A DNA stretch of 60,720 bases, the filler included, from Sphacelaria rigidula (taxonomy: Eukaryota): assembly GCA_964200075.2 (NCBI GenBank). It is 7 parts of 7 records of this genome, joined end to end, with 100 filler letters (N's around TTAATTAATTAA, not from the genome) between each part and the next. Parts side by side here need not be neighbours in the genome. Positions count along the whole stretch, not along the records: positions 43,445 to 52,032 come from CAXNAA020010684.1; 6 more parts are not named here. One strand, 5' to 3'. Under the pieces are notes generated by a model that saw only the letters and a list, made by a program, of their open reading frames with translations, was not told where the DNA came from and did no database searches. Made by a program: the position numbers and the translations under genes. Shown here one piece after another: positions 1,086 to 52,132 of this stretch (the stretch's first letter is position 1; every line of letters begins with the position of its first letter).

Positions 1086-1299
1086 GTCGTCAAAGGTGCG
1101 GTGGAGTCACCAAAACCGCCCCATACTCGAGGTTTGGTGGTGATTTCGCAAGCTGCTGAAGCAGCGCCAATCTGTTTCATATGTTCCCACATTGATTCAC
1201 GATCACATATTTGTGGGCTGCCGCTGTCTAACAAAGAGACGCATTTGGCCGTAACATGAACAGTTTCTTGAGATCTCTACACCACAGTATGTATACTGG

Positions 1300-1700
1300 T
1301 CTACGATCGGCAATTCCTCCTCTCCCCACTTTCATTTCACCTCTACCAGATTTGTCTCATCTTTGTTACAGACGATTACCGCGCATTTGTTGAGGTGCGC
1401 TGTCACTCTCCATTTCCTACTGTATTCTAGCGCGTTGCCTATCTGTGTCTGTAACCCTTCTGCTGTTCCTGAAATCCCCACAAAAGCATATGCGAACATC
1501 AATCCTGATATCGCATCTTCACCCACCTTGTGATTCCTTGATTTTGTGCTTCTTTCGCTAATATTATATCATTAATGAACATTTTGAATAGAGTGGGTGA
1601 TGTCGAAATATTTCGATATTTCCCCGTCTAGCATCATGGCACTTTTCGCACATTCTGTCATCTTCTTTACCATTCTCCACGTGTTTCCCCTGACTAGCTG
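1300..1700 (-). mobile_element. Degenerate LINE (non-LTR) reverse transcriptase fragment
   Basis: GNTWRMVKKMTECAKSAMMLDGEISKYFDI and SGLMFAYAFVGISGTAEGLQTQIGNALEYSRKWRVTAHLNKCAVIV match the non-LTR RT layout. The catalytic FADD has decayed to FAYA. Confidence 0.8.
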
Positions 1701-2249
1701 CTGGGGAGGGGATGCATCATCCCCTTGGATTACTAATGCCCCAAGTTCTGCGTAAAACTTGGCTTTCATGCCTTATGCTCAGATCTATAAAAATATATGT
1801 TTGAAAAAAAAGCGCAGAGTTATGCGCAGAAACCCCGTTTTATGCGAAGTTATATGCGCGCATAAGACACAAAAGCCTAAATGCAGTAGGCCTTGGCATC
1901 AGATTCAAGACTCAGGCTGACCCTGGCTCCTTATTTCCATGAGCGGACCGCTTCTGTACTCATGCTGCGCCCCTCGTTTAAAGTGATGTTGATCATGTTC
2001 GCGTCAGCCCTACTAAACCAACACCGTGACCATTACGTAATACCTCCGCTGTAGTAGTGGTGGCACTATACACGTGGTAGACCTGGAGCACCGTGTCGGA
2101 ACACCCGAGACCCAGACCGAGCAAACTAATTACCAGCGCATACAGGTGGTTCACAATGACGACCCCGTGAAGATTATACTGCACTTGTTTTAGAACAGCT
2201 CTCGCCGTAACTCTCATGCTGTCCCCACTTCCTCCTGGCGTACCCTAAA

Positions 2250-2620
2250 CCCTGCCCCCTACTAACAGGTCTTTGGTTACGTCGACTTCGTCACGGGGAG
2301 AGCCGCCGAGACGTGCGTCCGGACCCAAGCATATCTATTCGTTGGCGGTCGACCAGTGGTGGCAGATTTCGGGACAGGAGCGCCCAAGGGCTCGTTTCAA
2401 AGCCAGGACGGCGCGCAGACCACAATCCCATCCGCTGGTGCTGGGGTTGGCAAGGGGAGGCGCCCAAATTCAAGGTTCACGTCAAGTAAGACACGGTGGG
2501 TGGCGACGATCGGCGATGGTGAAGATTCCAGCGGGCATGTGCGGCGGAGAGTTGCATGTTTGTCGGAAGGCGTGTCGGACGTCGGTTTTGGCGTAACAAA
2601 GATCCCCCTCCCCCCCCCCG
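2250..2620 (-). mobile_element. Highly decayed DIRS/Ngaro-like RT fragment
   Basis: LCYAKTDVRHAFRQ and, in a shifted frame, VLLDVNLEFG resemble the xKxDVKDAFRQ...DLRLEFGW motifs seen more intact at 31900-32120. Confidence 0.45.
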
Positions 2621-8589: not shown

Positions 8590-8689
8590 NNNNNNNNNNN
8601 NNNNNNNNNNNNNNNNNNNNNNNNNNNNNNNNNTTAATTAATTAANNNNNNNNNNNNNNNNNNNNNNNNNNNNNNNNNNNNNNNNNNNN
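8590..8689. other. Artificial contig-joining linker
   Basis: 44 N + TTAATTAATTAA (stops in all six frames) + 44 N. Confidence 0.98.
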
Positions 8690-8759
8690 AAAAGCTCCAA
8701 AAAGACATTTTTCCGGGTTTTTATTTTTGTCTATTATAGGAAGCGGCCTCATGAGTTAA

Positions 8760-8955
8760 GGGCAATGATCAGTTTTCAGGTACAGTATCAGTAAAATGCC
8801 TTCAACTCATGAAAAAAAAAAGTGGTACCGAGGTAATCTTGTCTTTTATGCCCTATTCATTGTCCATACCAAATTTCAGGGTCCAACTCTAAATGTATAA
8901 AAGAGCATGGCCCTGCAAACTTCATAAAATCCGCCTCTAGGCTGGCCCAGCTCAT
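8760..8955. repeat. Dispersed non-coding repeat (MITE-like family)
   Basis: The motif tatgccctattcat...ccataccaaatt...ccaactctaaat...cctgcaaa...ggctgg(c/a)cagctc recurs at about 14380-14570 and 53230-53365 on different contigs. Confidence 0.7.
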
Positions 8956-10046
8956 AAGACATGCCCTTATCAAATTATTTTCGACTCGAAAACGTATGTT
9001 GGAATTGAATTTGCTCTTACCTGATACGTCCATGGCATCCGTGTTCTCAACCATCTGAGATAAGAAAGAGCGTGGTCGAATCGGAAAGGAGCCGATTCGA
9101 CCGCACGTTTTCGACACAAAATCAATTTGATAAGACAGGGCCTCATTTCATTGGGAGTCAACTCGTATGAACTCTGATTCGTCGTAACCGTGGACACTTC
9201 TGAGATGGCTTATCGTTTATCTTTTTCTTCCGAGAAATCAAGGTGATCCCAGCCTGACATCACAGGTGTTATACAGTTGTAGTAAAAGTATGGAGCCGGT
9301 CGCTTATTGGTCATGAGTTGTACAACTCTACAGTAAAGTTACAACAATCTCCCCGAGGATTATGATGTCACTGTGCGGTTAGACCTACAGGTGTGAGCGT
9401 GCGTAGTGAACGTCGCGTGCACACGCATTTCAAGGGAGGCGGGGAAAACTTGCGATTGCGCTGTGCTGTGCTGCACTGGCGCTCTGTACTCTCTCGACCG
9501 TAAGCCGAACCAAACTGTCTCTCGCACTATTGTGCTTGAAAGCTCCACTGTTGTACTGACTGTACTGTTGTTGTCATACTCTTGTGTGCAAACAGCAAAT
9601 AATCACCCTTGGATTACCGCTTGTTCTTGTTTTGGTGTAGCTCTCATCCCAATTTCACCTGATACCGATACCACAAGCTTTCTAGAAACTGTAAAGTATC
9701 CACCAAAGGCCATTCGCCCACCTGACACACTTTCGTTCGCCACCGCGTTCGCTCCACCAGGCACACGAATAAAGTAGGGCACATGCAGGGAAGATGCAAG
9801 CAGTAGCACAATACCAGTGGGGTACAAGTAGCACGGAAAGATGGTGATGAAGCTTATGGGCGGACTGCTGGCGGTAAAATCAACGGGACGAAAAATAATG
9901 CTGGAAGCCGAAAGTGATGATTAATAACAAGGGATAACATTCATGGAGACCAAGAGCAAAGGCCTGATGCCGGGTCTCGGCGAAACCTGGCCCCTCACAC
10001 AGAAGAAAAGCGCGCCCACCACGCGCATCAGGGTTGCTGCGCATTA

Positions 10047-13000
10047 ATGCTTAGGCGCAATCGTCTGCTGAGCGACAGTCCAAGTGCACACTTCGCTCCC
10101 GTGGCTCCCTCAGCTGGTGATTCACCACCCAGGTACGTCTCACAATAGACAAAAGGACTAAGTTCACTTCACCAAGGCTGGCGGTGGGACAGCTTGTAGT
10201 CAGTTGCCAACGAGAAAAGTCGCACATCCTCCGGTTTCGACCCTACTGACTGTATAGTACAGGCAAGTCAGTATAGTATACTGCTGCACAATGTGGGGTG
10301 ATCAGCAGTATAATCTGTCGTCTTGATCTTCAAGGGCAATAGTCGCCTCCAGAACACACCGTGGGAGCCGCCGGCAGGGGACATTGTTGTCGTGTAACGG
10401 TGACATGAAGACAGAAATCTGTACCCCACAAGAGCAGCCTATCACGCAGAACGATAGCCTGAATGTGTCAAATTCAGTGTGCGTGAGGGGACATGTGTAG
10501 TTACGAAGCACAGCAATGCCGACGACCTTTGCTGTTGTTCACGGCAGTACACATCTCATGAGAACCTTTCGATCTTTTGGTCCAGGGCCGAGCCGGCGGG
10601 TGGGGTTACCCCCGGGGAACTGGAGGAGCTCCTGAACAAAAAGAAGTTGACGCAAGACGAAATCATGGTGATTAGGCAGAGCATGGTTCAGGTATGGATG
10701 TTTGCCGTGTTTATATGGAAAATGCCCGTTGTGCTGTGCGCCTCTTGCCTTTGTGTAGTAAGCCCCCCCCCCCTGCGTTTAACATACGATACTTGGCCCT
10801 TTTGTTCCGTCCGTTCTGACTCTCTTCACTGCTGTCGGTATAGTCGGTGTATAGTTGGTGTTGTTATCTTCACGTTGAAAAACCGTTCCGATATCTGCGC
10901 ATTACTACTCGTACTGGGCATCTGGATCTTCCCCACTTTCCCAGTTTCCTCCAGCCGGTTTTTCCCGTTCTGTTCACCGTGGGTATGTGTGTCTTGCGAC
11001 CAAGACTTGTTCCCTCGCACCAGATTTCGTGTGGCCTTCAACTAATCGATTGATCAATCATTGATGTATCCCTATTCAATCATTTTGGCCCAGGAGCCCC
11101 TCTCTGGTGCACGATGGTGCACCACTGTATGTCTGTCTGTACACAGAAGGTCGGAACACTTTTGACCATATGAGTACGACACCTGCCTTGCCGCATCGGG
11201 AAAGTTACATTTACGTAGAACAACTACTGTACAGTTTATATCAATAATATTGAAGCAGTAGCTCTGAAGGTCATGCAATCACACCGCACGTGGTGTTTGA
11301 TGATGCTGAAACTTGCAGTGTGCGTCGCTTGAGACCGCAGACGGGTGTTGAAGCCATCAGTTCGGTAGCGCAAGAGGCTCAAGGTGTCGTGGGGATGAAA
11401 TGATGATTACGAGCCCTTCGCATATATTTCAGGACATTTTTTTCGATTCGTACGAGGTAATGGCTGTTGTAGAGGTTACGGCATCAAACCGGCGCGGAGG
11501 CAGCCGCAAATCTCGGCAGCATAGTCGTCCCGTGCCCCTCGTCGTCGGTCAACATTCGCAGTAACACAAGTTACGGGCACAGTTGGGGCTTCTTCATCTC
11601 TGTGAGATTGCTGCCCTCAACATTCGCTTGCCGTCTTGTACCAGACGTCGCCGTGAAGCCGAGCCGGTGTAAAAGGTTTCCACGTGTTCTGCCAAGGACC
11701 ACTGTAAGCCTCTTGGGGATGGAGGGGTACGTTGTCTTTTTTGTCTTGAAGACACCGCTGTAGTAAGGATCGCAGGCATTGTAAGAGACTGATCATCAGT
11801 GGGGCGGTTGTTGCTGTGTCTTCTACTGGAATCAATTTGGAATCCGAGCTTTGGTGCCTCCTACGTGAAGATTTTTGGCGTTGATTTTACGGTATCACTC
11901 GATCTCATTATGCAATATAGTGCAATTTTCACGTGTGCAATGGTCGCAGATGGATCAAGGGTACTGCAGCGCTCCCCACGCGTGGTTCGTGTCGTGCAGT
12001 CAGTACAGTACGGTCTGGTATGTGCGCAAAGTGCCAATTTTGTCTCGTCAAATTGGGTAGCTGGATACATTGTGTATATCGAGCGCTTCNNNNNNNNNNT
12101 CTACCTAACAGCAAGTATAATGCCTACCTGTGACCTATCCTAGTTTCGTTACAGTACCCTGCTCACTTTATCCGAATGTCCGTTTATACCACCCCCCTTT
12201 CGAAGAAATCACTCGGCTGGACCGTCAGCCGGAAAGTAGTACTGAGATGAGGCTCGTCGTTCGAAAAGTTGGCAAGCGCGCACACTATCTACAGCTACAA
12301 CTAATGTGCAGTTGCCTGCACCGCAACTCTCAGGTGACGATCTAGTGCAATCAGTTGTCTGTTGACAAGTAGTGGCAGCAGAGTTCACGGGAGTTGGTCA
12401 CTAAAATCCAATGTTTAATGGCTTTAGTCTTAACTATCACATTCGGATTCTCTCGGGGGCAACAGTTGAAGGTGCCCGCCATCATGCGCACACACGCGTT
12501 TTTTGCTGAAATTTGCAGATTTGAGCTCTGGCAATTGCACGATGCCTGGGGCGCTGCATGTTTCCTCGATAATTATCGGTTTGCCATGGTATGCGTATCT
12601 CATTGCTGGATGAAAATACTGCACAACTAGTTGCTTTTGGACAACTATAATGTTGGATAAGGAACCCCCGCCAGTAGTCGCCTATAAACGAGCGCTGTAT
12701 GAAAATTTTACATGAACAAGTTTGCCTGTGGACAACAGCGTAATTTGAAACCTGTGCAGCTGTTCTCATGTGGACGACGTCTACGGAACCGTGCCGTCGA
12801 GAGTCGGGGAAAGCGCCGTTGTTTGGTGTTCTTGTTTCCAACATGTAGACCAAAAAAAAAATCCTCAAAGTCCCGCCCCCTCTATCATGTGAGGAGCTAG
12901 TATATGCAAACAATCTATTTTAGCGGCCTACTAGCGCCATCTACGCCAACATTGTGGTCATCCTCCAAAAGCTGGCGAGACTGTCATACCATATTCTCGG

Positions 13001-16000
13001 AACAGGAGGCCACGGGCTCGAAAAGAGTAACAGGCATGGTGAAGAGTCAAAAGCATCCGCCCTATTCATGGCCCCGCTCTGCTCGGAGATCCGCGACAGG
13101 CTTTGGCGCTGAACGCGAACTCGGATGATAGCCTCACCTGACAGACGATATTTGGGTGTGAACGAGAGCAGGCAGAGCCCACCTCATCCTGCGTAGCATG
13201 TAGCATGCCGTTGATTTCTTGCGGTCTACGGTTCCAGACTATTTTCGTACGCTGCTTTTTTTTTCGCTGGTGCGGGGGAAAAGCCGTTCCGTCACACCGC
13301 CCCTTGGAACTACCGGCCAGAATGTAGCGACTAGACTCTAGTATATTTCCCGGCAAAAAGTGGTGATTTTATTCACCAGCTGGGCCAGGCTAGAAACGCG
13401 TTGAAGATGTCAAAGCAATATCTGATCGACATGGACGAGTTCGGCCGTGATCCGCATATCGCATTAATCTTTTATACAAGAGGGAAGGTGCCCATCTACT
13501 ACTCCACAGTCCAGGCCAGTATTTTCTCGTTAATTAAAACCCATGTTTATGATCGTAATTCCTATATATCGTACGGAGATGGCGTCCATACTCAAATCTA
13601 CATGCAACCCCGAACGACACAATTCAGCGGGTGACGACGAGTTATGGTGTGGACATTCATGGAGCAGGGGGAGACAATATATTCCGTCACCTTGGCCTAC
13701 TTCGTGATTTATCTCGATATATGGTGCACATAATGATTCATACTAAAATCAATATACTACGAGCAGAGGCACTAAATGCCCCAAATCCGGATGCAAGTAT
13801 CGCGTCGCAGTGTTCGAAAGTTGTGCTATGAAATTTCGCACGAAGAACGGCTAGTGTATAATAAAATAATATATATATATATATATATATATACATATGT
13901 TTTCGTTTTTTCAGGAGAGTTTCGAGGAGGATTGGACATCGCTCTTGGGCCTTATCTCAATTTTTTAGCTCGATTTTCAGAATTATGATTTGAAAGTTAG
14001 CATGTAGAACCAGAGGGGTATCCTGTCATTTTTTTTTTGGAGAGCTTCGGGCGTTTTCGTATGAACGTTGTCGTCACCTTATCAAAACGCCCCAAACCAA
14101 ACAAAAAATATAGAAATACCAACCTAACCCACTATGCTCGTTCGTTTTGCCCTAGCGAGGTCCCACACGAAATTTCAATACACGAACAACAAACATGGGC
14201 CGGTAAGTAGCCTGCAAAATACTGTTCCGATTTTTTTTCACTATCCCGGTCACTAAACGGCCCACTCACCGGCCAATTTTTAGAGTTGGAGCCTAGAATT
14301 TGGTATGGGCATTGAATAGGGCATAATAAAATAAAATAAAATAAACGAGTGCACCGAAAGAGTTTTTTTCAATGATTTGAGAGCAATAATCAGTTTTCAG
14401 TCATCAACAAAATGCCATTAACACGTGAAACACGGAATGGTGCACTCGTAATTTTTTTTATATGCCCTGTTCATGGTACATACCAATTTTTAGGCTCCAA
14501 CTCTAAATATTGGCCGGCGAATAAGCCTGCAAAGTACAAATTCGCCGCCGGGCTGGCACAGCTCGTACGCCATGACCATGGCAATAGTCGTTTTCTCGGT
14601 GTCCTCGAATCTACTTGTACCAAAAGATTCAAATTTAGGAGAAAATACAGTGTAGGGAATCGCAGACTGAAGAGGACATACCAGCTCGCGCCGGCCCGCA
14701 ATTGAGCGAAAAATGTGTAAACAGGAAAGGTCTAAGAGAGCTACACGGATTGAACAATGTACGGAAACACCTGCAGCAACTGCCAATGCCATAGACATGA
14801 TGAAGAGTCCCCTCCCCCCTCCCCCCTCCCCACCCCCACTACAGGATGAGGGTCGAGTACCAAAATAGTGACAAAAAGCAGGGTCATATCCAAATTAAAG
14901 CTCTCGTGTGGGAGGGGTTGAGAAAGTCCCAGCAATGTTTGTGAGGGAAAATACGGAAATATGTGCAAAACCCTGCTGCTGCTGCTGCTGCTGCTCATGG
15001 ATGTGGCTATATATCTCGCCAGAAGTATTAATGGTGCCCGTTGGGGTCGTGGAGTCGAAATGTTTCCTTTATGCCGTTGCTGCCGTGGCCGCTGTGCGTT
15101 TGGACGGATGAGAGCTTGTTTGAACTACTTTAAGGCGGGGTGGACGGTGGCGGGAGTTGAGAAGATCGAGAGAGTGTCCATAGGCCGGTGGCCCGTTGAC
15201 TTCACTGGGCAAGGGAGAGGCACCTAATTCGACCGTCGTCGTCTTGCTGGTAGCGTTGGATAATGACAGAAGGGAGCGCGTTCTTGGCCCTGTTCGCCGT
15301 ACTAGTAGGAGTGCTGACTGGTGCCGCGATACCCCCCCCTTAAAAAAAGTGCACGGTAAGGACGAATCATCACGACTACGAATCACGAGATTCACGATTT
15401 CTTCGGCCTGATTGCCCAAAAGGGAGAACAAATTTGACCGCTGGTCCAAGGGGTATCCACGCGACTTTTGCGCCATTCCACGTGTCTGGGCTGCGTGTAC
15501 CTGGGTTGCAACGCTGCAAACAGAGCCTAGGGATTGATTCGTACGAGTCGAATCAGTTACACTGAAACCAAGTAATTTCCAGACGAATCATCATTCGTCC
15601 GACCCTTGAAAAAGTGGCTGGTTTGAAGAGGCATACTTTACATGTTTATCTGAATGGCGAAAGCCCAACACACCGTGCAGCTCGGAACGCTTGGGACCGC
15701 TTTCGCCAATGTCTCCCATGTAAGGCGCTTCGTGTAATCTGAAAGCAGGTATCATGCGATCTATGTCCCTTTTCTTCGCGACAGTTTTGAGGCTGGGCTA
15801 AATACGCAGCATTACTCTGCTGTTGTTTGGCTGGCCAAAGGAGTACGCCAGAGTCCTCACTACCTCTGTACATGCGCCGATCAAAGTCGACAAAAACAGC
15901 AAATGAACTACGAAGAGAAAAGTACAGGTTTATGCTAACGTTGTACAAGAAACACAAACATATCCCCGTAACTTTTTTTTTCTTCCTTTTTTTGTCTACA

Positions 16001-16745
16001 TTGTTCCGATTTTATTCTCGCGGGTTATTCGTTGGTCTACGACATTTTTCTAGTCATGAACCCTTCGGGCGCCAGGGCGGGTCATCCAGGCCTTGCACTT
16101 AATTTGCGGGTGAAAAAATGATGTTCGATTCGAAAAATGGCCCGCCCTGGCTGTCATATATTTTAGCACCGTCAATCGACACAACGTGGTGAAAACCTCA
16201 TCCTGGTATTTCTTCCACGGTAAGGACGATTGATCACGACTAACAATCACCAAGTCCACGATTTCTTCGGCCTGATTGCCCGAAAGGGAGAAAAACGTTG
16301 ACCACTGGGCCAAGGGGTATCTACGCAACTTTTGCGCCATTCCACGTGTCTGCGCTGCGTGTACCTGGGTCGCAACGCTGAAAGCAAAGCCTAGGGATTC
16401 ATTCGTACGATTCAAATCAACTGTACTATTATAGAACCAAGTGATTTCTAGACGAATCATTATTTATCCAACCCTTGATTTTCTTTCACAAAATTACACT
16501 GACTGACTGACTGTGTCAAAGCATAGCCATCTGATGTGTTTCTCTCGTACGTGCTTTGTCGCCGCTCTTGTGTACATGGCCTGTTTCAACAGACACAAGG
16601 CAGGCTTTGGACAGCGACGGAGGGCGCCGCGGGCGTGCCGGAAAAACGGAACTCGATATCATCGCCCAAGTCGGAAGTCGTGGGGGATGACAGTTTGGTC
16701 GTTGGCAAGGGCATAATGATGAAAGGAGACGTTGACGACTGCGCG
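10047..16745 (+). CDS. Bactofilin (polymer-forming, CcmA-like) domain protein, 5' part; 3' exons off contig
   Basis: Phase-consistent exons 10047-10132, 10586-10691 and 16593-16745 with GT-AG sites give MLRRNRLLSDSPSAHFAPVAPSAGDSPPRAEPAGGVTPGELEELLNKKKLTQDEIMVIRQSMVQTQGRLW...DDSLVVGKGIMMKGDVDDCA. The last motif resembles the first bactofilin beta-helix rung (LIVGxGIxLKGEIxxCDxLxVEG). Exon 1 is less certain. Confidence 0.6.
14262..14522. repeat. Inverted-repeat (foldback/MITE-like) element
   Basis: ggccaatttttagagttggagcctagaatttggtatgggcattgaatagggcata (14271-14325) is a near reverse complement of 14461-14515. An inner pair aacgagtgcacc / ggtgcactcgta is also present. Confidence 0.8.
15352..16478. 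repeat. Two diverged direct copies of a ~260-bp repeat (15352-15610 and 16216-16478)
   Basis: Both copies share cacggtaaggacga...atttcttcggcctgattgccc...ttttgcgccattccacgtgtctg...agacgaatcat...acccttga. Confidence 0.85.
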
Positions 16746-17154
16746 GTGAGCTTTTGCCATGATTATTTTTTTCCTCCCTGGTCATAACCTAAACCACTCC
16801 CTTTCCTCGGAACGAGTCCGTTGTTTCGACGGTTCAACCAATCTCTCTCTCCCCCGGTACACGCATTTGCATGTTGCTCGCGGATTGGATCATGACTATT
16901 AATATCAGTACCACTCCCTCAACGCATCAACACTCGTCAAACAAATCGTTATATCAAATTTTCGACGCTGGTCACGTACGTCCCCGGGCTTTCAACGACC
17001 GAAATCAGATGCTCCCCGAGAACAAATCAAAGCTATTTATAAACGCAAATGGGCAAGAGTTAAGCCCACGTTTTCCCCGACCCTGTGGAGTCGGTTGTAC
17101 CGTTGAACCACCGGGGGGTGGCGGATTATGAAGTACAAGTATTACGATGACAGC

Positions 17155-17278
17155 TGCCCCCCTCCCCCCTGTGGTTAGACACCCATGAGGCAGTGTAAAA
17201 GGCGTGGTTGTCTTTGGAAGTGGCGATACCACAGAACAAAGCAACTCATTCGAGGCTGTCATCCAAATGCAAGATAAT
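17155..17278. repeat. Dispersed repeat, inverted copy at ~34835-34950
   Basis: cccatgaggcagtgta...ggaagtggc.ataccacagaa.aaagca.ctcatt...ggctgtcatccaaatgcaaga is present as a reverse complement in contig 5. Confidence 0.8.
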
Positions 17279-17378
17279 NNNNNNNNNNNNNNNNNNNNNN
17301 NNNNNNNNNNNNNNNNNNNNNNTTAATTAATTAANNNNNNNNNNNNNNNNNNNNNNNNNNNNNNNNNNNNNNNNNNNN
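17279..17378. other. Artificial contig-joining linker
   Basis: N44-TTAATTAATTAA-N44. Confidence 0.98.
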
Positions 17379-20179
17379 GGAACGGTGCTCCTTCCCGAAA
17401 GGGAAGCGTGGCCAATGGGCAAGCGACTAAGGCAAGCAACAAATGACCCCCCCCCCCCCCCTCCCTCTCCGAGCCTGGCCCGGCGAAAGCCCGGCGTGCT
17501 CCGTCCCGGCTGTGTCGGGATGCGAGGTCAATGGTCTCATGACTGCGTGATGCAAGATGATGATTTCACCCCCCTCCCTTCTCCATCCCTGGCTGGGAGC
17601 GGCCTATCTACGTCATTTCCACATTGGGTTGCTCGCGGGCTGTTGCTGCTGCTTTTGTTCCACTAGTGGCGGGTCTCCTATCGGTTCTCCTATTGGCTCT
17701 CCATGTAACAGCTTGATTCCCGTGACATAGGTCAGGTTAGCGTAGGCGCTCTCAACGCCACGCCACCTCAAGTTTCTGGGCTCCTTTCTCGACGCCCAGT
17801 TTGCGTTCGTTTTTACCCGCAACAGCAGTCCCCGAATCTTCTGGGTCTTTGGCCTACAAACTGAAGACAACGCACGTCCTTCGTCTTCCCTAGCGTGCGA
17901 ATAGATAAGCTCGAAGGCGTGTGGTTTCTCTTGGGAGGTGCTTTTCTCCCGGTGGTTTGATAGCCATCGTGTTGTGCATGTAGATGTTCCGCTGTGATGA
18001 CTGCAGACTGCATGGGTGAGAACAGCAGGCAAAATACTAGAGTTTGCGATTGTGTATGTACTCACGCGCCTGTCACGAGTCTACCGGTCGTATTCTGAAT
18101 ACGACGCCCCCGTTCGACACCTGCACGGCGACGATGACGCGATCACACTTGGGTGGGTGCGATGCCAGCATAAATATCCTCAAGCCTACATCATCTCACC
18201 GTCGATCAGCTCCACCGTCAACACCTCCCGCCGAAAAAACAGAAGGAAGAATCTGTCGTGCGGCGAGATATGACGCGCCGCACGGGCTTTTGGTGTGTTT
18301 CAGCGGTTGGATATGTACCCCCCTTCAATATCTGCGTGGTGTCGTCGACACAGAAGAACCGGCCACATTGACCGATCGTCCTTGCCGTGGCTATTATCAC
18401 CCAGATACGCTTGGACCGCAACAAAAACCAATCCCCGTTGATCAACACTGTGGGTCTGAGGTTACGCACCCCGCCCACACTTTCATCTTTTTCCCGGAAT
18501 GCGTCAGCTCGTTGAAACCACTCCAAACCTTTTTCAATCATACACGTGCATTGCACTCTACTTCGTATGGACATCTAATCATTCGGGATTGTAAGACATA
18601 TACACCAATATATGTGTATATATATATCATACGTCGGACGGATCAGCTCGTGACAGATCCCGGTCAGCTCATTTGGTGCGTAGATCATGATATGTCCGAG
18701 GTGTGCTGTCACCTGTGCACGCTTGTCCGATGCTGATCCGTAGGACCCACTTGACCCGTACATATTTGCCGAGCGACGAGCTGTACGACCCGCTTCACAC
18801 GCACACTTTCGTGTGCACCTGATCTGTAGAACCGTGTCATCTGTACAATATCACATAATTGTGAGTTATATCACTCGGGTCAGGCAAGCACAGTAGCTTA
18901 TCGTCGACCCGCGCTATTTGAATCTCATGTACACCAAAAGCTACCCCTCACCTGTGGAATCCGAATCTAGTACAGTATACAAGAAACACTTTCCCGCACC
19001 AGTAAGGTCTGGATCAAGGATGCAAGAAAAAAGTACTCAGCTCCCTCACCTGTTGACCTGTATGGCCCGGGTACAGTGCATGTTCACAAGTCCGAACGTT
19101 GGCTGTAGCGACCCGGGCACATGGAACATGAAGTATATATATTTTATTCCGAGTGGTTCCACGGTAGGGCTGTATTTATTTTTCGAAGATGTGCACTGTC
19201 GGCGCATCCGAATGAAGTATACAATAAGCAGTGTTCAGTATTCCTCACCTGCCAACCCGTATGGCTCTGGTACACTGTGAATGTTCACAGGTCCGTATGT
19301 TGACTGTTGACTATAGCAGCTACACGAAGTACATGTAATTTATTGACGCGGCACACATGACGTCATGACTGATCTTTATGACCCGTGTGATTCGTACATA
19401 CCTGTCTGATGATGACCTGTATGACTCGAGTATCCGTACAAACCCACCACGAGTGATTTGTATCATCTGTTGATCCGTGCATCACCTCCTCGGGTACACC
19501 CATGTAATCCGAATCAGGTGTACACGAAACGCTAAGAAGAACCTGTGTATCCTTGTAACCCGTACAAGATACCACCCTCCTGATCGATGATATGCGGATC
19601 ACGAGTACCTTCCCATAACTAGTTGCACTGTATCATCCGAATCGGGTACACAGGTGTGTTTACACTCGAGCTGTATGACCTGCGCCGTATAAACAATGAT
19701 CCGTCCGACGCGTGATGCACAATAAATATATAGAATATGTCGAACTCACGAGCGTCAAGCATACTTTGTAACGAGGAGTCCACGAGATTTATTGTTGATT
19801 TCAGTGTGCAAGTTCCTCCGCACCCGCCCCGGGAGATGACTATTCGGGCAAATGCCAATGCTAGAGACCCGGTTCGCGGATTCGTGCTTTACTTTGTGCG
19901 GGGGTACACATGCGTTCGCGACGGTTCGAACGGACGCGCGATCACGGTGGTCCTGTATTGTTTCCGGCGGGCATGAACATTTCGAGAGAGGATCTATTCT
20001 CACGAGGGCTTGGCAAGGCAAGAATACCGAGACCCTTGAAAAAGACGGACGGGAGCGGGGTGCAGCCCCGGGTCCCGTGCGGCTTGCATATGTGTATACA
20101 TGTGCAGTTGTACGTGTACTTGTGCTTGAAACGCCCTCCCGCCCTCCCGCCCTCCCGCTACCCCATACCGCGAACTCAG

Positions 20180-25967: not shown

Positions 25968-26067
25968 NNNNNNNNNNNNNNNNNNNNNNNNNNNNNNNNN
26001 NNNNNNNNNNNTTAATTAATTAANNNNNNNNNNNNNNNNNNNNNNNNNNNNNNNNNNNNNNNNNNNN
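25968..26067. other. Artificial contig-joining linker
   Basis: N44-TTAATTAATTAA-N44. Confidence 0.98.
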
Positions 26068-34656: not shown

Positions 34657-34756
34657 NNNNNNNNNNNNNNNNNNNNNNNNNNNNNNNNNNNNNNNNNNNN
34701 TTAATTAATTAANNNNNNNNNNNNNNNNNNNNNNNNNNNNNNNNNNNNNNNNNNNN
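34657..34756. other. Artificial contig-joining linker
   Basis: N44-TTAATTAATTAA-N44. Confidence 0.98.
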
Positions 34757-43344: not shown

Positions 43345-43444
43345 NNNNNNNNNNNNNNNNNNNNNNNNNNNNNNNNNNNNNNNNNNNNTTAATTAATTAA
43401 NNNNNNNNNNNNNNNNNNNNNNNNNNNNNNNNNNNNNNNNNNNN
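43345..43444. other. Artificial contig-joining linker
   Basis: N44-TTAATTAATTAA-N44. Confidence 0.98.
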
Positions 43445-43936
43445 GTTTTCTAGTGGCGGTCCCCGGTATATGTACAGTGGCAGTCTGTACATTTGTCTAG
43501 GTTTTGGGGCGCGGGGGGGGGGGAGAGGGATGCGTACAATATCTTGGATATCAATCCCAGCGGGAAAATAGCACCTACTCGTTACAATTACAATGCAGAG
43601 ACAGGCGACGACCATCAAATGACACGACAAGAATCGATACTTACAAACGTCTACATCAAGTGGTTTCAAGCGCCACAGCACCACAGCGCAACACATTTCA
43701 TACTAAGACCTGGGCACTTGTGAACCACCCTGGAAGTCCCATTCATATCCGTGGCAGTCCGTTCCCCTTACCCTTTAGTTCAGTACAAGGAAAGCGAGCG
43801 CACGGCCACTCAGAGTCCTACTTCTGCAAACACAGCCCTACTGCTGCAAACAGCACGCGTCCGCAACTAGATCTGCTGAGCACAATCTCGTTCGACATAA
43901 CGAAAATATAATTTGAAACGTCAATTGAGCCCTCAC

Positions 43937-46900
43937 CATGCCGTTGTAGCCTCGCGTGGTCGTCTCTCCCCAAAAGTTGTTCATAGTCACCACACCGAAC
44001 TCCAGGTCTCCGCTAAGCACGCCAGTTTCCGTGTCCAACTCCCACACGAACTCCGGAAGCGATGCCACAGTCTCGCCGACGGGAGCTGCCACTGGCGCCA
44101 TGGTGGGTTCGGGGGCAGCGGTAGGAGCCGCAGTTCCCGCGAAGACCTCTCCCGCGACGATGGTGACTGAGTCAATCGAGGACGAGTTCTGGGAAAGGGG
44201 AGAACATGCAACATGAAATGGGGGTTGATGGAGCATCTTGCGTAAAGTGCGGAAGTTCGCTGAAATGATGCATTTTACCAAGGACGTGCTCGCGTAGGAC
44301 CCAAGACAAACGACCTAGAGAGCAGAACGGAGCACAGCAGTACCTTGCAAAAGACCGAATGAAACAAAGCCCGATCTTGTATCGTATCAACCCACCCCAC
44401 CTCAAAAGTCGACTTTTGTAGGTCACACGAAATTCGGCCGAGCGAACAGCACAGCTCTAAATCATCCTATACTCTCTGCCTTTCATATCTCTAACTCCTC
44501 GCTGTATGCCAACTTCAATATATCTAATGCACCGCACATTTATTCAGTCCGTAGGCAACGGCATTACAGCGATTGATTGGACCTGGGTAACGAATACAAT
44601 CACAGAATTGGGAGCACAGCCTGTCACTAGGGATATGTGGACTCACAGTAGGACGGTTTACGTTTCGGTCGGTAGTTTGACACCCTCACCTCAGAGTTGG
44701 TGACCTGCACTGTGGCTTCGTACAAGCCGGCCTCGGTGTAGGTACAGGCGTGCTCTCTCGCCGTAGCAACCGACCAGTCACCAGAAGCTTCGAACACCCC
44801 ATCGCCCTCGCAGTCCCAGTGGAGCTCCACGATGCCGGAAGAGTCCGAGGAGCCAGACGCGTCGAGCGTTACCTCGAGTGGTAACTGTTACAACACCACG
44901 AAAGAGCGACAAACAAGCACGAAGACACGAGCAAAACATGTCAACAAGTTTGCTCTCGCACTGCGTGTACCGCACACGGCTGAGAAGATCCATGATCCAA
45001 AGCAGGTACTGTACGTCAGACTAACAACTCTTTTCAATAGTGTCGCTGTCACTTGTCGCCCACCTCTCCCTCGACGACGTCAGCCTCGAGTACGACGTAC
45101 GGACCCGGGGACGATCCATTGACAGAGATCCTCATCAAGATGCTGAACTTGGCATCGATCGCGTAAAGGATACCTGTTTGATGAAACCGTTTCGTGCATC
45201 ACAAGGGCAGACAAAACACAATGAAACATCACAAAATATTGAACTACAGCACGGAAAACTGCTATATCGATCCCGGGCAAGTCGATCTTTACAAAGACTT
45301 TGTCAAGACAGGATATGGTGACATCACGCAAACCTGATATATTCATGAGTACACCCCCCGTCACTCTACGTGGGATCAGCGTTAAGCCTCGAGGAATGAA
45401 CCCATCTCTCCCGTGGTACCCGCCGCGCAGATTATTGTGCAACACTCCATGATGACCACTCGTGCACCCCATCGACTTTTCATCCAAGTTTTTTTCGTCA
45501 AGTCACCTTCTCGCGCCTGTCACATCGCACACCAGTTGAACCCATCATTGCCCTCGTGATTTGAACCCCAATACTTGTACTCCGCCCAAAGTAGCTCATT
45601 CCGTCCTGTTTTGTGCGAGAGTCCGTGTCACCGGCTAGGCGCGGCGGCCCACGTGAAGTACACGATTGTACACATACTGCTCGCCGTACGGTGAACTACC
45701 TCACTCACCAGTTTTGGGATCGGTGTTGAAATCCACAATCGCTCGCCCCTCGAACAAGACGTGAGGAGTTGTCCAATCCACATCCCCTGTTACTTCGTTT
45801 GTGTCGAAGTAGAACACGCAGTCCTGTGCGGCGCAATGTCGTCGCAATGTCGAGGCAAACGAAAAAACGGACAATACGGCGGGTTCCGCTTCACCTCAAT
45901 TTCAGAAGCAAGCCGCTCGATCCGGGCACGAGTGCAACATCACGTTACAGCAAGCACTCCACAGGTACTGAAAAACGACGATGGGATAACATTCGTATTT
46001 CCAACGTCGAAGTTCGACTACTGTACGTACATGTCAGTGCTCACCTTGGAATAGTCTCCCACGAAGAGTGCGTCCTCGTACCGGTCCGGGAGATAGTTGG
46101 CCTCGTAGAAGTGCACCGCGGACACGGAAGCCATAGTGTTGGTGCACATCCGTGGGTATTCCTCGTCCACCGTTTCTGCAAAAACAGAACATGAACAAGA
46201 GCACGACGCCCCCGACAGTACACATAAAACGTAAGTCAGGGTACACATGGACAGCAGGCCATGGAGAAAACATGTTTCGAATTATTACCGCAGAGAGACG
46301 TCCACCAGTGAGGTTGGTGTTTGATCGTTTTTGTCCCAAGCAGGAGAGACACAGTTGTAGCGGCCATATGCTAGCTTGATTTTTTGACACCACACATACA
46401 ACAGGCCGCCCTTCGTCACGGTACACCAAACTAACACAATGATTCGAGCTTTGTGTGTCATGACCACAGGCCGCACTCATGGCATAATCAGCTAGGATAT
46501 ATGTACGCTGCATCAAGCACCTACGGCAACGCTGCGACTAGCTTGCTGCCCTCATCTTACCGTCGCGGTAGCTGAACGCCGGGGGAACCCACTCCACGGT
46601 TCCGGCCTCGGCCTGTGTCTTGAGTTCGTCGTAGTCCACGTCGAGGGGAAGACCTAGCGTTGTCCCTCGTACACTGTCGCAAATATCGTTTTCGTTTTCC
46701 ACCAGCCATCTAGAAGACATTGAGGCAGATGGTGATACGGTGTTACGGTGATGACGTCGGGAAGGGGGACTCATGTTTCAGTAACACCGCGTAGAATCGC
46801 ATGCGCAGAGAGACCGACCTGGTACTTACTCTGTGCAATTCGTCTTCCGCCGAGACTCCCAACTTGATATTTGCAGATTTGTCTGGGATATGAAGAAGAG

Positions 46901-48933
46901 GCGCCTTACATTCGTTGGGGACGTTCTCCTCAACCTCGAGTGCGAACAGGCTTGGTGTGGCCAATGGACGACCAGGTGGAACACCAAAAACCATGATATG
47001 GCCCCAACTGATCTCCTATACACTCAACAGAACCGACCGAGCCAAGCCGGACTACACCGTCTTTGGTCCCATGCCAACCTCAAAAACCCAACAAGAATTC
47101 AACTCTCGCGTTTGTGACTTGACGCATCAACGCGCACATGGTACAGAACATGGATGAGTGAAACGGTCACAGCCGTAACTCACTCATTAGTGAAGGGGGG
47201 TATCCACGCGTCACCCTCCATGCAAGGCCAGCCATGGTTTGGAATGTTGGTGGGGGTGCCGTTGGAAGAGACGAAGTCGGGCACGACCTTGAGACTCTCC
47301 GCGGTGTCCAGTCCTACGTCGGCGATGACAATGTCACCAGTGCGAGGCGTGACCGTTAATCGGAAGGGATTCCGGAAGCCCTTGGCTTGGATCTGCGTGA
47401 ACGACGAGGAATGAACGTGTGTTGCTCCTGTCATACAACTATTGGCACACGAGCGGCCGCTTTGAACAAACGCAACTCACACATGCAGTTTCAAGTTTTA
47501 ACTCCATCTACAACGTGTGACAGATTTTGATGATAGGACATGACAAAACAAAATACACCGGCACCGCACATCCAAAGGGATATAAGTTTCACGAGACCAC
47601 ATCTGAAGACTCACGAAGAAGTCTTCGTCCCGCACGAGGAAGCCATAGTCTACGTCCTGTCCAGTTGGCATCGACTTCACCAAAGCGGCGGCCGTTACTT
47701 GGAGCAACTTTCCCTCGTTGAAGTCATCCCGTTGAGCGCGGAAATTTCCCTGAGGCAGATCGATGGTGGGCACCAAACAGGAATTTTCTTCCTCGTCTCC
47801 CGGATCTCGCTGGTCTGCCTGTGGTGCCCCGCCGAGCAGCCACAAAACGGCGGTTGGAGTACAAAAGACGGGTATCGTATCGACTGGTCGCGCTTCGTGT
47901 CACAATGAGGGATCTGATCATTTGGGGCTTCAGCAGCAACAGCAAAGACACTTGGCCGTCGATCGGTGGACGTCCGAAATCGGTGCAACATGCTCCCCGA
48001 GAGACGTCACGATGCGTCAGGGCCGTGCAGCGGTCACGAGTTTACAGGTTCCGAATTTCGATTCCATCCAAGGTTCACTCGCTGACGCACTCGGAACGAG
48101 GGCAAATGACCCACGAGTACTGTTCTTCGCGTATGTAGTACATGCGACACCACCATCCGAACTGGCTATAACCCACTAGTCTTCCTACTCCAAAGCACCG
48201 CAGGTACTTGCTTCGGCAAACATCGCATTGCGCGCGCTCTTCTCGCACGATTGTATACCCCCTAGTGTTGTTGGTGCGCGGCATCCCGAAAATACGTTTG
48301 ACTGGTTAATCGCTTCCAATAACTTCAACAAAAGGTTACTCCTCTTTGCGTGATATTTCCCACATATTCGTACTACGCACAAAACGCTGCATGTCATTGA
48401 TTGATTGAGTGATGCCTCACCCTCACCCGGTACGAACGGAGCCGTGGTGTCTGGATGATTGGCGTATCCAGGGTAGACAAACAGAAATACTCTTTGAACG
48501 AAACTCGACAGGAATATGGAAGAAAAAAGGCGAGCAGAAACACAGTATACAGTATACCGTGCAGTAGGCTGCTGCACACAGGGGGGAAAGGAGAAGAAAA
48601 AAGAGGAAACCAAAGATGATGGGAAGGAAAAGAAAGGGGAGAACAGTAGACAAGAAAAAGAACAAAAAAGAGGTGACCATGGCATGCGACGAGTGTTTGA
48701 CAGGTTTACACACCTTCGACATATCGCCCACGGCGAGCGCCATGTCTCCATTGGATAAAAACGCCATTCCCCCGCCCCCGTGGTGGTTGGATCCCGTGCA
48801 CCAATCGCTTATCAGGATCTCCTGTGCCCCGCACGTCACCGTCTCGGAGGCCTCGTCGTACTCAACCTCCACACGCACGAAACGGTGATCTTTTTCACAC
48901 CAATTCGGAGCGACCAAGCAGTCATCGTTATAC
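43937..48933 (-). CDS. Multidomain protein: glucose/sorbosone (PQQ-type) dehydrogenase beta-propeller + PKD domain + Pro/Ala linker + probable multicopper oxidase N-terminus; partial at both ends
   Basis: Eight phase-consistent GT-AG exons: 48933-48714, 47818-47615, 47392-47184, 46709-46561, 46175-46045, 45823-45709, 45173-45064, 44884-44690, plus a ninth at 44188-43937. GSDH motifs: ILISDWCTGSNHHGGGGMAF, AKGFRNPFR, IADVG, NHGWPCMEG, FYEANYLPDRYEDALFVGDYSKDCVF. PKD: LPLEVTLDASGSSD..LHWDCEGDG...CTYTEAGLYEATVQVT. Last exon ends GVLSGDLEFGVVTMNNFWGETTTRGYNGM. Confidence 0.88.
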
Positions 48934-51900
48934 CTGCGGCGACAGCGGACGGCATCACAATGACACGAAACGGCAAAGAGTGTGATCCGTGGTCATCTCG
49001 TTTCGTCGAGGTTAATACACCCTGCAGAAGAAGGCGGGAGGAAGAGGGGCTCCAGATTGAGAACTACTCCCAGCAGCCCGATCTGAACGTACGAACCGGG
49101 GGGTGCTTCAAGCACTCTGCTTCAAGCACTCTCGGATATGGAATCGGGGATTTATGTTCTACCCATCATAATTCCACTGAAAATCTTCCTCAGTTGATCG
49201 AGAGCAACCAAAACTTCGGGTTTATTTTTTGCTCTCGAGTATCTCGACCCCAGAATTTCATGTCGCGATTCCTCCGTTCCTAGCATGAAAACAGGCATCA
49301 GACAGCGACCACGGAAAAGATACGCGCAAAAACAAATGTTGCGATATGCACACCGTGCATGATACATGACCTTACATCGAACCACAAGAACCAGGCTAAC
49401 CCGAACTTCGACAGTCACCATAGTAGACTTTTGCTCCCATCTCCCCTGCGGGGTCATCCAACCTTACTCCTTGCAAAAATACTCGTCAACTCTTGGCATG
49501 CTGGTTCCCCTCTTCCTTGAGCGACACTGGGGAGAAGCAGCGTCGATCAATCCGACGCTTACACACTGATACTACATGCACATGTTGGTCACCGAAACCT
49601 CTCGCTAAAGTCGCTCGTTGCCGGCAACACAGAGCGTGTCGTTCTTCTCCACGGGACGCTACCCACTGTACACTCCTTCGTGAAAACTATTGTATCAAAC
49701 TGTAGTGTGGTGACGATTCCTCTGTCGGGCACGCTAACGCTATGCTCCACACTGCTTCGTGCGTCCTCCATTGTCCGAATTCATGGCCTTCACAAATAAC
49801 GCTATCAACACCTGAGGCCATTATACACTATTTCCGAACGCCCTACTCTGACACAGGCCCCAGCCTCCCATTTAGTGTCAAGCGCACCAAGCGCTCGTTT
49901 TTACACGAAATTATTCATGGAAAACAATTGAAATTGTTGAAAAAAATCACGAAATGGAGAGGTGTAGAAACGTGCGATTACGCTGGGCTTTTCTCAGCAA
50001 ACCCACAATTTTTTGTGGGAGTGTGGTACTGCAAATCCGATCGGCGTATCAGAGGATCGACTCGAAACTCTCCAAGACGCAATTCAATATTCATTGATTC
50101 CGAGCAGCATGACTCCAGGCCTTACCCGAGGTCGTGTGCGTACAGCATGTAGCCATAGGGAATCTCTGGCCAGTCGGGATGCAATCGAAAGTTAAGCAGC
50201 CCAAGATCGTTGTTTGCGTAAACCTTTGAGGGGACACGAAGGGACAATAGCACAAGAGGCATTTGCAATCAGGGAACGAGGGAATAGCGACGGTTAATCA
50301 ACACACAGCAGATACAGGATGAAGCCGGTAGTCTTTCTTACGGTCCTTGTTCCCATATTCTGTCCGCTCACAGCTCCGCGGGATCTTGGAGCACTACTTT
50401 CGTGGGCGTAATGGACGCTGGATGGACATTGGTGGTGTGGGAGCATGTCTTAACGAGGCCCGAATCAAAACCTGCAAAAATCGTTTGGCGATTCATGCCC
50501 CGTGACTTTATGCTGCGATATCACCGCCTCCAAAAACGTCATTCGCGAAGATGATTTTTGACAAGTCTTTTCAAACTTCCTCACAATTGTTTGGGCTACA
50601 GGCTGGGCCGCCAAAGAAACGGACTGTCATTCAGCCTGTTCCAACTGACCATATATCGCAAAGTATGCCGACTTTGACACATCGTGGTGATCTGCAAATT
50701 AGGGCACGTCTTTCAATCCACGTAGCACGGCGATCCGACAAGTTTCCATCAAACGAAATATCAAACCGTAGTCAGCTGCAAAGCATGATAAGTTGAGGGT
50801 AACATGTGCGGCGGAATTAGGGGGGGAAAGCGGCTGAAGTCGTATTTTCGGTTACAGTCGGTTGTGCCGCGGCCGCAAAGTGGTGGTGTTTGCTACACAA
50901 GTTGTGCTTGTACAACAATGCATGTCGTATTGCAGGCACGCAGTGTCTAACCAGTGAGCAGTGGGTGAAAAAAGCTTGAAGAGAACACCAAAGTTCCTGC
51001 TGAGGTTGTTGTAGTCTAAAAGCAAGTCGATCGGTTCTCAACAGAAAAAACGCGATGTCAGTGCTCGATTTCAAGTCGCTTTCCATGAATTTTGACACGA
51101 TGCACATGAGGTGTGTGCGAAGTCCCCATCGGTGCCCCCTTATACTTTATTTCTTTCCCTCGTGAGTTATTGGTGATTGAAATTTTGGAACGATTGTTCC
51201 CGGTACAGAAGCGTCGCCAACTCGTTGAAATATATAAATAAAGTCAAGGCGGGATAATATGGAGCGGTGGATTCGTAAGTACGGGTTTATTCTCATAGTA
51301 CACTAATTTCAAGTCATTTAATTTAAATTATTTCCAGTCCCTTTTCGTTTCAAAGTAAAAACTTGATTCTAGTGTAGGTTCCGTCATACGTGGTTTTGCC
51401 GATCTTCTGGTGCCCGCAGCGGCAGTGCAGCACCGCGTGGAGGCAGAGTGATACCCCACGCGACGGCAGTCTCACACGCGGTGCTCTGTCTATTGGTATA
51501 CTGGGTAGTGTACCCAACGTTCGCTATGAGTGTCGCCGTGCCCGTGGTATGGTTGTGGTGGCTGGGGTTGGTGTTGCAGTCGCCATTTGTGCTTGGGTTG
51601 CTGCTGCATCTGCACGGCCTTGGATACGGGGCACGATTCAAGATGGCCCCATCGTGGTCGTTGTGTGGTGTTTGATGTTGCTTGGACGGGACATGAACCG
51701 AGAACAAGACTCCACACGCCTCAATGCATCAATGCTGCTGGCCCCCTTTTGTAGGCTGTCGTGCTGTTGTTCTGGATGACTCGCGTTGATCGATGCCGTA
51801 TAGACATGTGTGACAATTAAGCACGGTACCGACTGGTTGGCCTGCGCTGGCGGATCTTTTTGCGATACAGATACAGTCGGTATCGCGACAGAAAGTTGTT

Positions 51901-52032
51901 GCGGTACAAGGCTGGAGACAAGCAAGCACTCTACACACGGGACATCAGACAGCCAACGCAATAATGTACTTCCTCTGGGGCGAAATATAAGCTCGTTTGG
52001 AAAAGCGCAAAATATAAGCTCGATTTACTAAC

Positions 52033-52132
52033 NNNNNNNNNNNNNNNNNNNNNNNNNNNNNNNNNNNNNNNNNNNNTTAATTAATTAANNNNNNNNNNNN
52101 NNNNNNNNNNNNNNNNNNNNNNNNNNNNNNNN
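52033..52132. other. Artificial contig-joining linker
   Basis: N44-TTAATTAATTAA-N44. Confidence 0.98.

Follow-up and report, generated by a model that had tools for sequence, protein, structure and literature searches.

A spliced gene of the brown alga Sphacelaria rigidula joins a sugar-dehydrogenase-like propeller, a PKD domain and the start of a multicopper oxidase: a candidate redox pair in one chain

Can a single polypeptide hold both a dehydrogenase and the oxidase that takes up its electrons? The question is raised by a gene of the brown alga Sphacelaria rigidula (assembly GCA_964200075.2), located on the minus strand of the contig at 43445-52032, which truncates the gene at both ends. 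This contig is one of 7, of 8588-8589 bp each, that make up the window, the whole stretch of 60,720 nucleotides analysed here. An initial annotation, made from the sequence, had placed at 43937-48933 a fusion of a sugar dehydrogenase of the pyrroloquinoline quinone (PQQ) type, a PKD domain and a multicopper oxidase (MCO), and had proposed that the two enzymes form a redox chain. We found that the gene is real, spliced and expressed in this brown alga, with one reading frame that runs from the propeller through the PKD domain and a linker into the start of the MCO. The architecture was borne out, by transcripts and by the copper motifs of the relatives P0002 and P0205; the redox chain stays a proposal.

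The gene model comprises ten exons and nine GT..AG introns. Joined, the exons give 561 stop-free codons identical to residues 2-562 of P0001, a public NCBI record of 563 aa named 'unnamed protein product, partial [Sphacelaria rigidula]'. Exons were placed by tblastn with a longer relative, P0002 (eukprot id, 1209 aa), by splice joints in contigs of the RNA-like runs X1-X3 and by identity to P0001. In the order of the gene the features are:

50126..50223, minus strand: exon 1 on the contig, a propeller blade (VYANNDLGLL...), with the joint 48930>50123 (cut +3) in X1-X3, an AG acceptor at 50225-50224 and a tblastn match to P0002 residues 107-139.
48714..48933, minus strand: exon 2, with NHHGGG (NHHG at 48788-48777); codon 48782-48780 is His85 of P0001.
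47615..47818, minus strand: exon 3, propeller (ADQRDPGD...PQGNFRAQ...), placed by tblastn, transcript joints and P0001 identity.
47184..47392, minus strand: exon 4, propeller, with GFRNPF (FRNP at 47377-47366) and GWPCMEG (GWPC at 47233-47222).
46561..46709, minus strand: exon 5, propeller with a helical insert (WLVENENDICD...), placed by tblastn, joints and P0001 identity.
46045..46175, minus strand: exon 6, propeller, ending in DYSK (46056-46045).
45709..45823, minus strand: exon 7, the last propeller blade, with RAIVD in place of the RxR(D/E)V of classical PQQ enzymes.
45064..45173, minus strand: exon 8, which closes the propeller and leads to the PKD domain, placed by tblastn, joints and P0001 identity.
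44690..44884, minus strand: exon 9, the PKD exon, matching PF00801 with 25.4 bits on its own (cut-off 23.5).
43937..44188, minus strand: exon 10, with the end of the PKD domain, an Ala/Pro/Thr linker (44140-44069) and the N-terminal strands of cupredoxin domain 1 (44068-43937).
43445..43936, minus strand: start of the next intron, which reaches the contig end; its last ~290 bp are high-copy repeat.

The junction between linker and oxidase lies within exon 10, where both share one exon and one open frame with no stop or start between them. This exon is 100% identical to P0001, aligns with P0002 up to residue 684 and ends in ...TTTRGYNGM at a GT donor (43936-43935). The motifs NHHG, FRNP and GWPC of the glucose/sorbosone dehydrogenase (GSDH) propeller, the PKD domain, the linker with its terminal motif at the donor and the phase-consistent spliced reading frame of the initial annotation were all recovered at their places, and the contig does terminate, at 43445, where it had located the limit to its oxidase call. 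Its locus was too short: the exons within it stand, and its start at 48933 does not, as a further exon (50126-50223) and more transcript lie upstream. The sequence behind 50225 reads FDSCVAIEDE by hand translation and resembles YDSCVDMEPD of P0002. When P0002 was compared with the whole window by tblastn, residues 107-697 gave ten collinear pieces confined to this contig, the match beyond residue 684 running into intron sequence, and residues 1-106 and 698-1209 gave chance-level matches only (E 3.9-8.3), with none below E 7 for residues 698-1209. The exons for the copper motifs of Sphacelaria are unseen because they lie off the contig.

Eight sequencing runs contain the stretch. Four of them, X1-X4, share ~0.22-0.28 of its words and were marked 'RNA?' as a guess; X1-X3, together with the DNA-like run X5, were mapped on the contig. 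Since the contigs of X1-X3 lack all nine introns we took these runs as RNA, a status that comes from splicing only. In each of the three, all nine joints are found on one contig (6476, 6383 and 6184 nt, respectively), and every joint reads CT..AC on the plus strand, that is, GT..AG on the strand of the gene. Run X5 has none of the nine joints and covers the whole unique part at depth 68; in five intron-only bins the depth is 0 in X1-X3 versus 68 in X5. As the joint between them is present in X1-X3 (3/3) and absent from the DNA run, the PKD exon is spliced to exon 44188-43937, the point that the initial annotation had named as decisive for its model.

The transcripts also carry the reading frame beyond the genomic contig. 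At 43937 the X1 and X3 contigs depart from the genome, and their 30 loose letters, reverse-complemented and translated by hand in phase 0 of the exon, encode IPGPTIRMEA, identical to P0002 residues 685-694; a PGPT(I/L)R motif following YNG had been predicted. The contigs of X1-X3 extend 4195, 4093 and 3924 nt past exon 43937-44188 and ~575-605 nt upstream of exon 50126-50223, off the contig. One further contig, of 151 nt and from X3, lies in the intron at 43755-43905 with depth 2 versus 62 for the spliced contig; a small amount of unspliced RNA, or of DNA, in X3 could account for it.

Two other open frames were considered and rejected. An ORF (open reading frame) at 46746-47015 is absent from the transcripts and from P0001, and the bin 46889-47175 has depth 0 in X1-X3. 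The record P0082 (147 aa, 43841-44314, minus strand, 99% identical) is no short isoform: it is a prokaryote-style read-through ORF call, which reads the last exon into the intron up to a stop. One residue of it, in the intron part, differs from the stretch.

P0001 matches Pfam GSDH (PF07995, cut-off 25 bits) with 28.6 bits, P0002 with 37.6 and P0205 with 47.8, and P0001 matches Pfam PKD (PF00801, cut-off 23.5) with 25.8 bits over residues 413-482, at positions 45066-44177. When the exons were searched singly, 1 of the 10 pieces matched Pfam (PKD) and none matched GSDH at E <= 1; because the pieces are too short, this is not counter-evidence. What follows the truncation is indicated by P0002, which is 63% identical to P0001 over 100% of its length (E 1.5e-242) and alone has MCO domains among 54 long-protein matches to P0001. 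Its order is a signal-like N-terminus, GSDH (61-337), a PKD-like stretch, the linker, PELEWTL at 645 and IPGPTIRM at 685, followed by the copper motifs HTHG (727), WYHPH (769), HPFHMH (1024) and HCH (1078), and it ends with one hydrophobic span at ~1152-1175 and a short basic tail. No PKD family was found in P0002 at E <= 0.01, though the stretch is 64% identical to the PKD region of P0001. If the C-terminal span is read as a membrane span, this layout suggests that both redox modules are extracellular, at the cell wall. The copper motifs and signal peptide proposed as a check on the oxidase have counterparts in relatives (motifs in P0002 and P0205, the signal-like N-terminus in P0002), the corresponding Sphacelaria exons lying off the contig.

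The oxidase of P0002 matches Pfam Cu-oxidase_3 and Cu-oxidase_2, with no match to the middle-domain Pfam model. Over residues 676-1095 it aligns with the Thermus thermophilus MCO from residue 35 to residue 438 of 439 (E 3.1e-32); the alignments to solved structures start at residue 671 for CueO, the weaker match, and at 676 for the Thermus enzyme. By these alignments the module is a complete, compact three-domain MCO. The four copper motifs (HxHG, WxHxH, HxxHxH and HCHxxxH) supply 10 His and one Cys as ligands, all of them kept in 17 of the 17 fusion members that cover them. Sphacelaria's own oxidase is known only from its N-terminal strands and IPGPTIRMEA; the copper motifs are known from the relatives. 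In the motif register that we take to place the axial ligand of type-1 copper, P0002 has Ile, then Met, and the 17 covering members have Met in 8 and Ile, Val or Leu in 9 (P0205 ends before the position); the brown-algal clade has Ile, not Met. Relatives that display this variation include P0002, P0073, P0164, P0211, P0219, P0220, P0224 and P0225. A non-coordinating axial residue is linked to a higher potential of type-1 copper, and the pattern hints that the paralogues may be tuned to different redox potentials or substrates. The roles in phenolic cross-linking or in iron or halide chemistry that the initial annotation gave as examples stay conjectural; on iron, the Ectocarpus paper (PMC3904714) postulates an MCO step in its accessible text.

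We next considered how widespread the fusion is. The oxidase part of P0002 was searched among proteins of 664-2116 aa, giving 277 matches at E <= 1e-5, of which 120 were listed, and a propeller hidden Markov model from alignment A1 was run on these 120. Among the matches listed, a propeller stands N-terminal to the oxidase in 18 of 120 MCO relatives; 8 of these positives were in the training alignment and 10 were not. The named fusion members are from Ectocarpus sp. (1), Chrysoparadoxa australica (3), Tribonema minus (4) and an MMETSP record 'Vauche...' (1), and two members come from Trinity ORFs flagged as complete. All 18 fusion proteins retain the segment PELEW...YNGxIPGP, and the pairwise identity of the propeller set is ~33%. 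Paralogues differ at the C-terminus, with CBM6 in some and EGF-like repeats or a hydrophobic span in others.

A quick LG+G4 tree of the oxidases (118 domains, 2 of the 120 being dropped for short coverage; midpoint root, several long branches) required 3 changes of the fusion label versus a shuffled mean of 17.0, with 0 of 500 shuffles as low, and the common ancestor of the 18 fusions spans 23 of the 118 tips. Because the oxidase parts of the fusion proteins group together on this tree, we take the fusion to be both real and old: the architecture looks like one old fusion, and that the propeller-PKD-MCO fusion is real is close to certain. The five extra tips in the fusion clade (P0213-P0215, P0217 and P0221) are nested MCO-only proteins of 734-819 aa, which suggests secondary loss of the propeller or truncated gene models. 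In P0164, P0209, P0168 and other non-brown-algal members the gap between propeller and Cu-oxidase_3 is too short for a PKD domain; the PKD spacer may have been ancestral and then lost, or may have been regained in brown algae. A scan of prokaryotes, with one genome per species and P0210 as the query, returned at least 80 loci, all matching the oxidase part only (residues 554-1108, 25-29% identity). Drawn from few search patterns, the result speaks weakly for prokaryotes lacking the fusion, which would then be eukaryotic.

There remained the question of whether the propeller is an enzyme. A family profile was needed because P0001 alone matched no solved dehydrogenase. Built from 33 sequences, the propeller profile matched TTHA0570 (2ISM, E 1.3e-26), E. 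coli Asd (2G8S, E 1.7e-21), the soluble PQQ glucose dehydrogenase sGDH of Acinetobacter (1C9U/5MIN, E about 8e-18, namely 8.7e-18) and hedgehog-interacting protein (HHIP, E 2.8e-9). An AlphaFold2 model of P0001 has a mean pLDDT (predicted local distance difference test) of 78.9, with 10-residue blocks over residues 51-390 at 76-96. Searched with Foldseek, it matched sGDH chains best (E 1e-15), the range for sGDH, Asd and TTHA0570 being 1e-15 to 2e-10, followed by other PQQ sugar dehydrogenases, HHIP (3.4e-8) and AA12 (6I1T, 1.2e-7; 6JT5, 2.4e-6). The propeller is predicted by this model to be six-bladed like the solved GSDH members. The ESM Atlas yielded no usable match.

The residue equivalences rest on the profile alignments. 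His144 of sGDH, the general base, corresponds to His85 of P0001 and is His in all 16 fusions that cover the site. Arg228 and Asn229, which contact the quinone oxygens of PQQ, correspond to the R and N of GFRNP; the former is Arg in 17 of 18 and His in one, the latter N in 11, Q in 6 and V in 1. Lys377 falls, within one position, on the K of DYSK (K 13, R 3, Q 1, I 1 of 18), and Arg406/Arg408, which bind the PQQ carboxylates in the last blade, fall on Ala/Val of RAIVD, with Arg in 0 of 18. This pattern means that the core of the active site is kept and the classical PQQ signature is incomplete. The bacterial GSDH-PKD relatives of the propeller show the same pattern, equivalents of Arg406/Arg408 being absent there too. 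In the accessible text of PMC6881789, two of the three PQQ-binding arginines of the fungal enzyme CcPDH are kept in sGDH and Asd, and PQQ contacts vary by subfamily. The motif GWPCxEG (P0001 229-235) is near-invariant in the algal fusions and the bacterial GSDH-PKD relatives, where sGDH has GWPNVAG, and is an apparent subfamily signature; several other Cys are near-invariant in the same propeller subfamily (alignments A1/A2).

Taken together as a mechanism, the propeller, carrying a quinone cofactor that is probably PQQ acquired from bacteria, would oxidise a sugar of aldose type, which may be a cell-wall sugar or a reducing end. The type-1 copper of the tethered MCO would re-oxidise the reduced cofactor, either through docking that is transient, like that of the mobile cytochrome in CcPDH, or via a small quinone or phenol mediator, and the trinuclear copper site would then reduce O2 to water. 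Such a sugar:oxygen oxidoreductase would be independent of external acceptors and would release no H2O2. Quinols are the kind of substrate that MCOs oxidise. The coupling logic is supported by bacterial relatives of the propeller, whose fusion partner is cytochrome c or, in one case, a cupredoxin (PF00127, P0023), and a link to sugars is provided by the CBM6 on some fusion paralogues. CcPDH accepts L-fucose as a substrate and transfers electrons from its PQQ domain to the cytochrome fused to it, according to the accessible part of PMC4332668; cytochromes have also been modelled on the face of bacterial six-bladed PQQ enzymes, ~12 A from PQQ, in the available text of a preprint (bioRxiv 10.64898/2026.07.10.737718). 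We would give a probability of about 0.45 to the reading that propeller and MCO are redox-coupled as an electron pair. That the cofactor is PQQ and the coupling direct is doubtful. Equally tentative, and as a whole rather unlikely, is the fullest version, a cell-surface single-chain oxidase that would use bacterial PQQ and a wall or exudate sugar such as L-fucose and reduce O2 to water without H2O2.

Several observations weigh against a PQQ enzyme coupled to an oxidase in one chain. Among solved structures P0001 alone matched a PKD-like chain only (E 0.094) and no GSDH, and its GSDH score is barely above the Pfam cut-off. In the sequence profile alignment, the positions of Arg406 and Arg408 are Ala/Gly and Val/Ile/Ser in 18 of 18 fusions, and one of these two arginines is among those common to CcPDH and the bacterial enzymes in the accessible text of PMC6881789. 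HHIP, which is non-enzymatic, is found among both the profile and the fold matches. PQQ synthesis is not known from eukaryotes, which would make the activity reliant on bacteria. Contig data are no proof that exon 43937-44188 and the 3.9-4.2 kb after it belong to a single transcript. Finally, in a whole-protein model of the Tribonema member P0209 both modules fold, with a predicted template modelling score (pTM) of 0.54 and a linker pLDDT <50; at this pTM and with the linker poorly defined, the model gives no confident contact between modules and speaks neither for nor against an interface. The redox chain of the initial annotation remains a candidate, with the catalytic His, Arg-Asn and Lys of the propeller kept and the last-blade arginines absent in 18 of 18.

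The same data bear on other explanations. HHIP is not an enzyme, and the propeller could be a binding or scaffold module of that kind which, with the PKD domain, anchors a stand-alone MCO of laccase or ferroxidase type to a wall polymer or partner, the oxidase drawing its electrons from phenols or metal ions; we hold both parts of this explanation to be possible and somewhat unlikely. It would account for the loss of the Arg406/Arg408 equivalents in all 18 fusions, for the Gln or Val at the Asn229 equivalent in 7 of 18 and the His at Arg228 in one, for HHIP among the profile and fold relatives and for the extra binding modules (CBM6, EGF-like) on paralogues, and the accessible text of the Phaeoexplorer preprint allows a signalling role for a brown-algal GSDH-like protein. 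At ~33% identity, however, a pure scaffold would not be expected to keep the catalytic His in 16 of 16 fusions, Arg228 in 17 of 18 and Lys or Arg at the Lys377 position in 16 of 18, and genuine PQQ dehydrogenases outrank HHIP in both the profile and the fold matches. Alternatively, both modules may be active on different substrates and electronically uncoupled, the fusion serving co-localisation only; the oxidase would, for example, make wall quinones or radicals and the dehydrogenase sugar lactones or acids. The long linker, predicted to be disordered, with a PKD spacer in the brown-algal form, would fit such an arrangement, as would the absence of a confidently predicted interface and the variable axial type-1 residue (Met 8, Ile/Val/Leu 9 of 17), which suggests differing oxidase substrates. 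We nevertheless think it improbable, for the fusion has been retained through deep divergence and in many paralogues, other six-bladed PQQ enzymes repeatedly carry or dock their own electron acceptor, and a PQQ-type dehydrogenase requires an acceptor, of which the fusion protein contains no other.

The fusion itself might be an artefact, with adjacent genes for a dehydrogenase and an oxidase run together during gene calling or in a chimeric assembly of transcripts: the models of P0002 and several relatives were predicted automatically, and Logan contigs can join adjacent transcripts. Against this, the linker-oxidase junction lies within one exon with no intervening stop or start, genome models from four named genera share that junction, as do Trinity transcripts flagged as complete, and the PELEW...YNGxIPGP segment is kept in 18 proteins, so that we give an artefact hardly any credence.

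Returning to redox coupling within one chain, the nearest functional parallel is CcPDH, a PQQ-dependent pyranose dehydrogenase (fungal AA12, with the order AA8 cytochrome b-AA12-CBM1). Like the algal protein it is a secreted eukaryotic six-bladed propeller of the GSDH fold, linker-fused to an electron acceptor, with a carbohydrate-related module in the same chain and a conserved catalytic His, as described in the available parts of PMC4332668 and PMC6881789. The acceptor of CcPDH is a haem b domain that hands electrons to another enzyme, whereas that of the algal protein is a four-copper oxidase that could reach O2 itself, and the algal propeller is nearer to the bacterial enzymes than to AA12. 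By analogy, we infer that the algal fusion would work most like CcPDH or cellobiose dehydrogenase, with an oxidase replacing the cytochrome.

The best profile and fold matches of the algal propeller are the bacterial enzymes of sGDH type (1C9U/5MIN, Asd 2G8S and TTHA0570 2ISM), with which it shares His144, Arg228-Asn229 and the basic residue near Lys377. Unlike them it lacks Arg406/Arg408 and has the Cys-rich GWPCxEG and a helical insert, and the protein is eukaryotic, spliced and fused to a PKD domain and an MCO. Its nearest non-algal relatives (24-34% identity over ~87% of P0001) are bacterial GSDH-PKD proteins with ThuA, CBM6 or cytochrome c, annotated 'PQQ-dependent sugar dehydrogenase' or 'ThuA domain-containing'. 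These too have a propeller followed by a PKD domain, the GWPCxEG motif and no such arginines; in contrast, none of the 53 other long matches carries an MCO, the fused acceptor being cytochrome c or, once, a small cupredoxin. The algal oxidase resembles Tth-MCO (2XU9) in the end-to-end alignment with P0002 676-1095 and in all four copper motifs, and CueO (1KV7) in the N-terminal ...YNG-x-xPGP strand; unlike both, it sits behind a dehydrogenase-like propeller, and in brown algae it has axial Ile versus Met. The HHIP propeller shares the six-bladed fold and an extracellular, disulfide-rich setting, and is the closest non-stramenopile eukaryotic match according to the accessible text of the Phaeoexplorer preprint; it matches less well than the PQQ enzymes do and has no fused oxidase. 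By its domain matches the fusion is assigned to Pfam GSDH and PKD and, on the strength of its relatives, to the three-domain MCOs, and is a putative PQQ enzyme.

The truncation of the gene is probably explained by its surroundings. Both contig ends are high-copy: the summed depth in run X5 is 184,422 at 43445-43731 and 1,097-19,643 at 50620-52032, compared with a depth of 68 for the unique part, and probably for this reason the assembly broke inside introns of the fusion gene. These end repeats gave no match to the other six contigs of the window. Repeats shared among contigs of the window comprise short matches only (69-464 bp), none of them on the contig at 43445-52032. The spacers between contigs have the form N44-TTAATTAATTAA-N44, with N runs every 8688-8689 bases, and lie at 8590-8689, 17279-17378, 25968-26067, 34657-34756, 43345-43444 and 52033-52132; the flanking parts are not genomic neighbours.

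Both halves of the fusion are known enzyme types, and their natural joining is undescribed in the literature that we found: among the titles and abstracts that full-text searches listed, none describes a dehydrogenase-MCO or GSDH-MCO fusion. The Phaeoexplorer preprint names, in its accessible text, a brown-algal 'PQQ-dependent sugar dehydrogenase'; in its main text 'multicopper', 'laccase' and 'copper' have 0 occurrences, and Table S4 of the supplement, which lies outside that count, may name this family. The fusion proteins sit in public databases as unnamed or hypothetical.

The usual electron acceptor of GSDH-fold dehydrogenases is a cytochrome, either separate or fused. An attached four-electron O2 reductase would, if the coupling is true, give a self-sufficient extracellular oxidase that avoids peroxide. 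Biofuel cells have been engineered with PQQ glucose dehydrogenase alongside laccase or bilirubin oxidase, and evolution appears to have tethered a similar dehydrogenase-oxidase pair. If PQQ-based coupling holds, the protein would be the first eukaryotic PQQ enzyme outside fungi and the first natural dehydrogenase-MCO fusion. Candidate use of PQQ in photosynthetic eukaryotes would imply a candidate cofactor dependence between alga and bacterium, in which brown algae and their relatives would depend biochemically on a bacterial vitamin, and the fusion is a new candidate player in the redox chemistry of the brown-algal cell wall.

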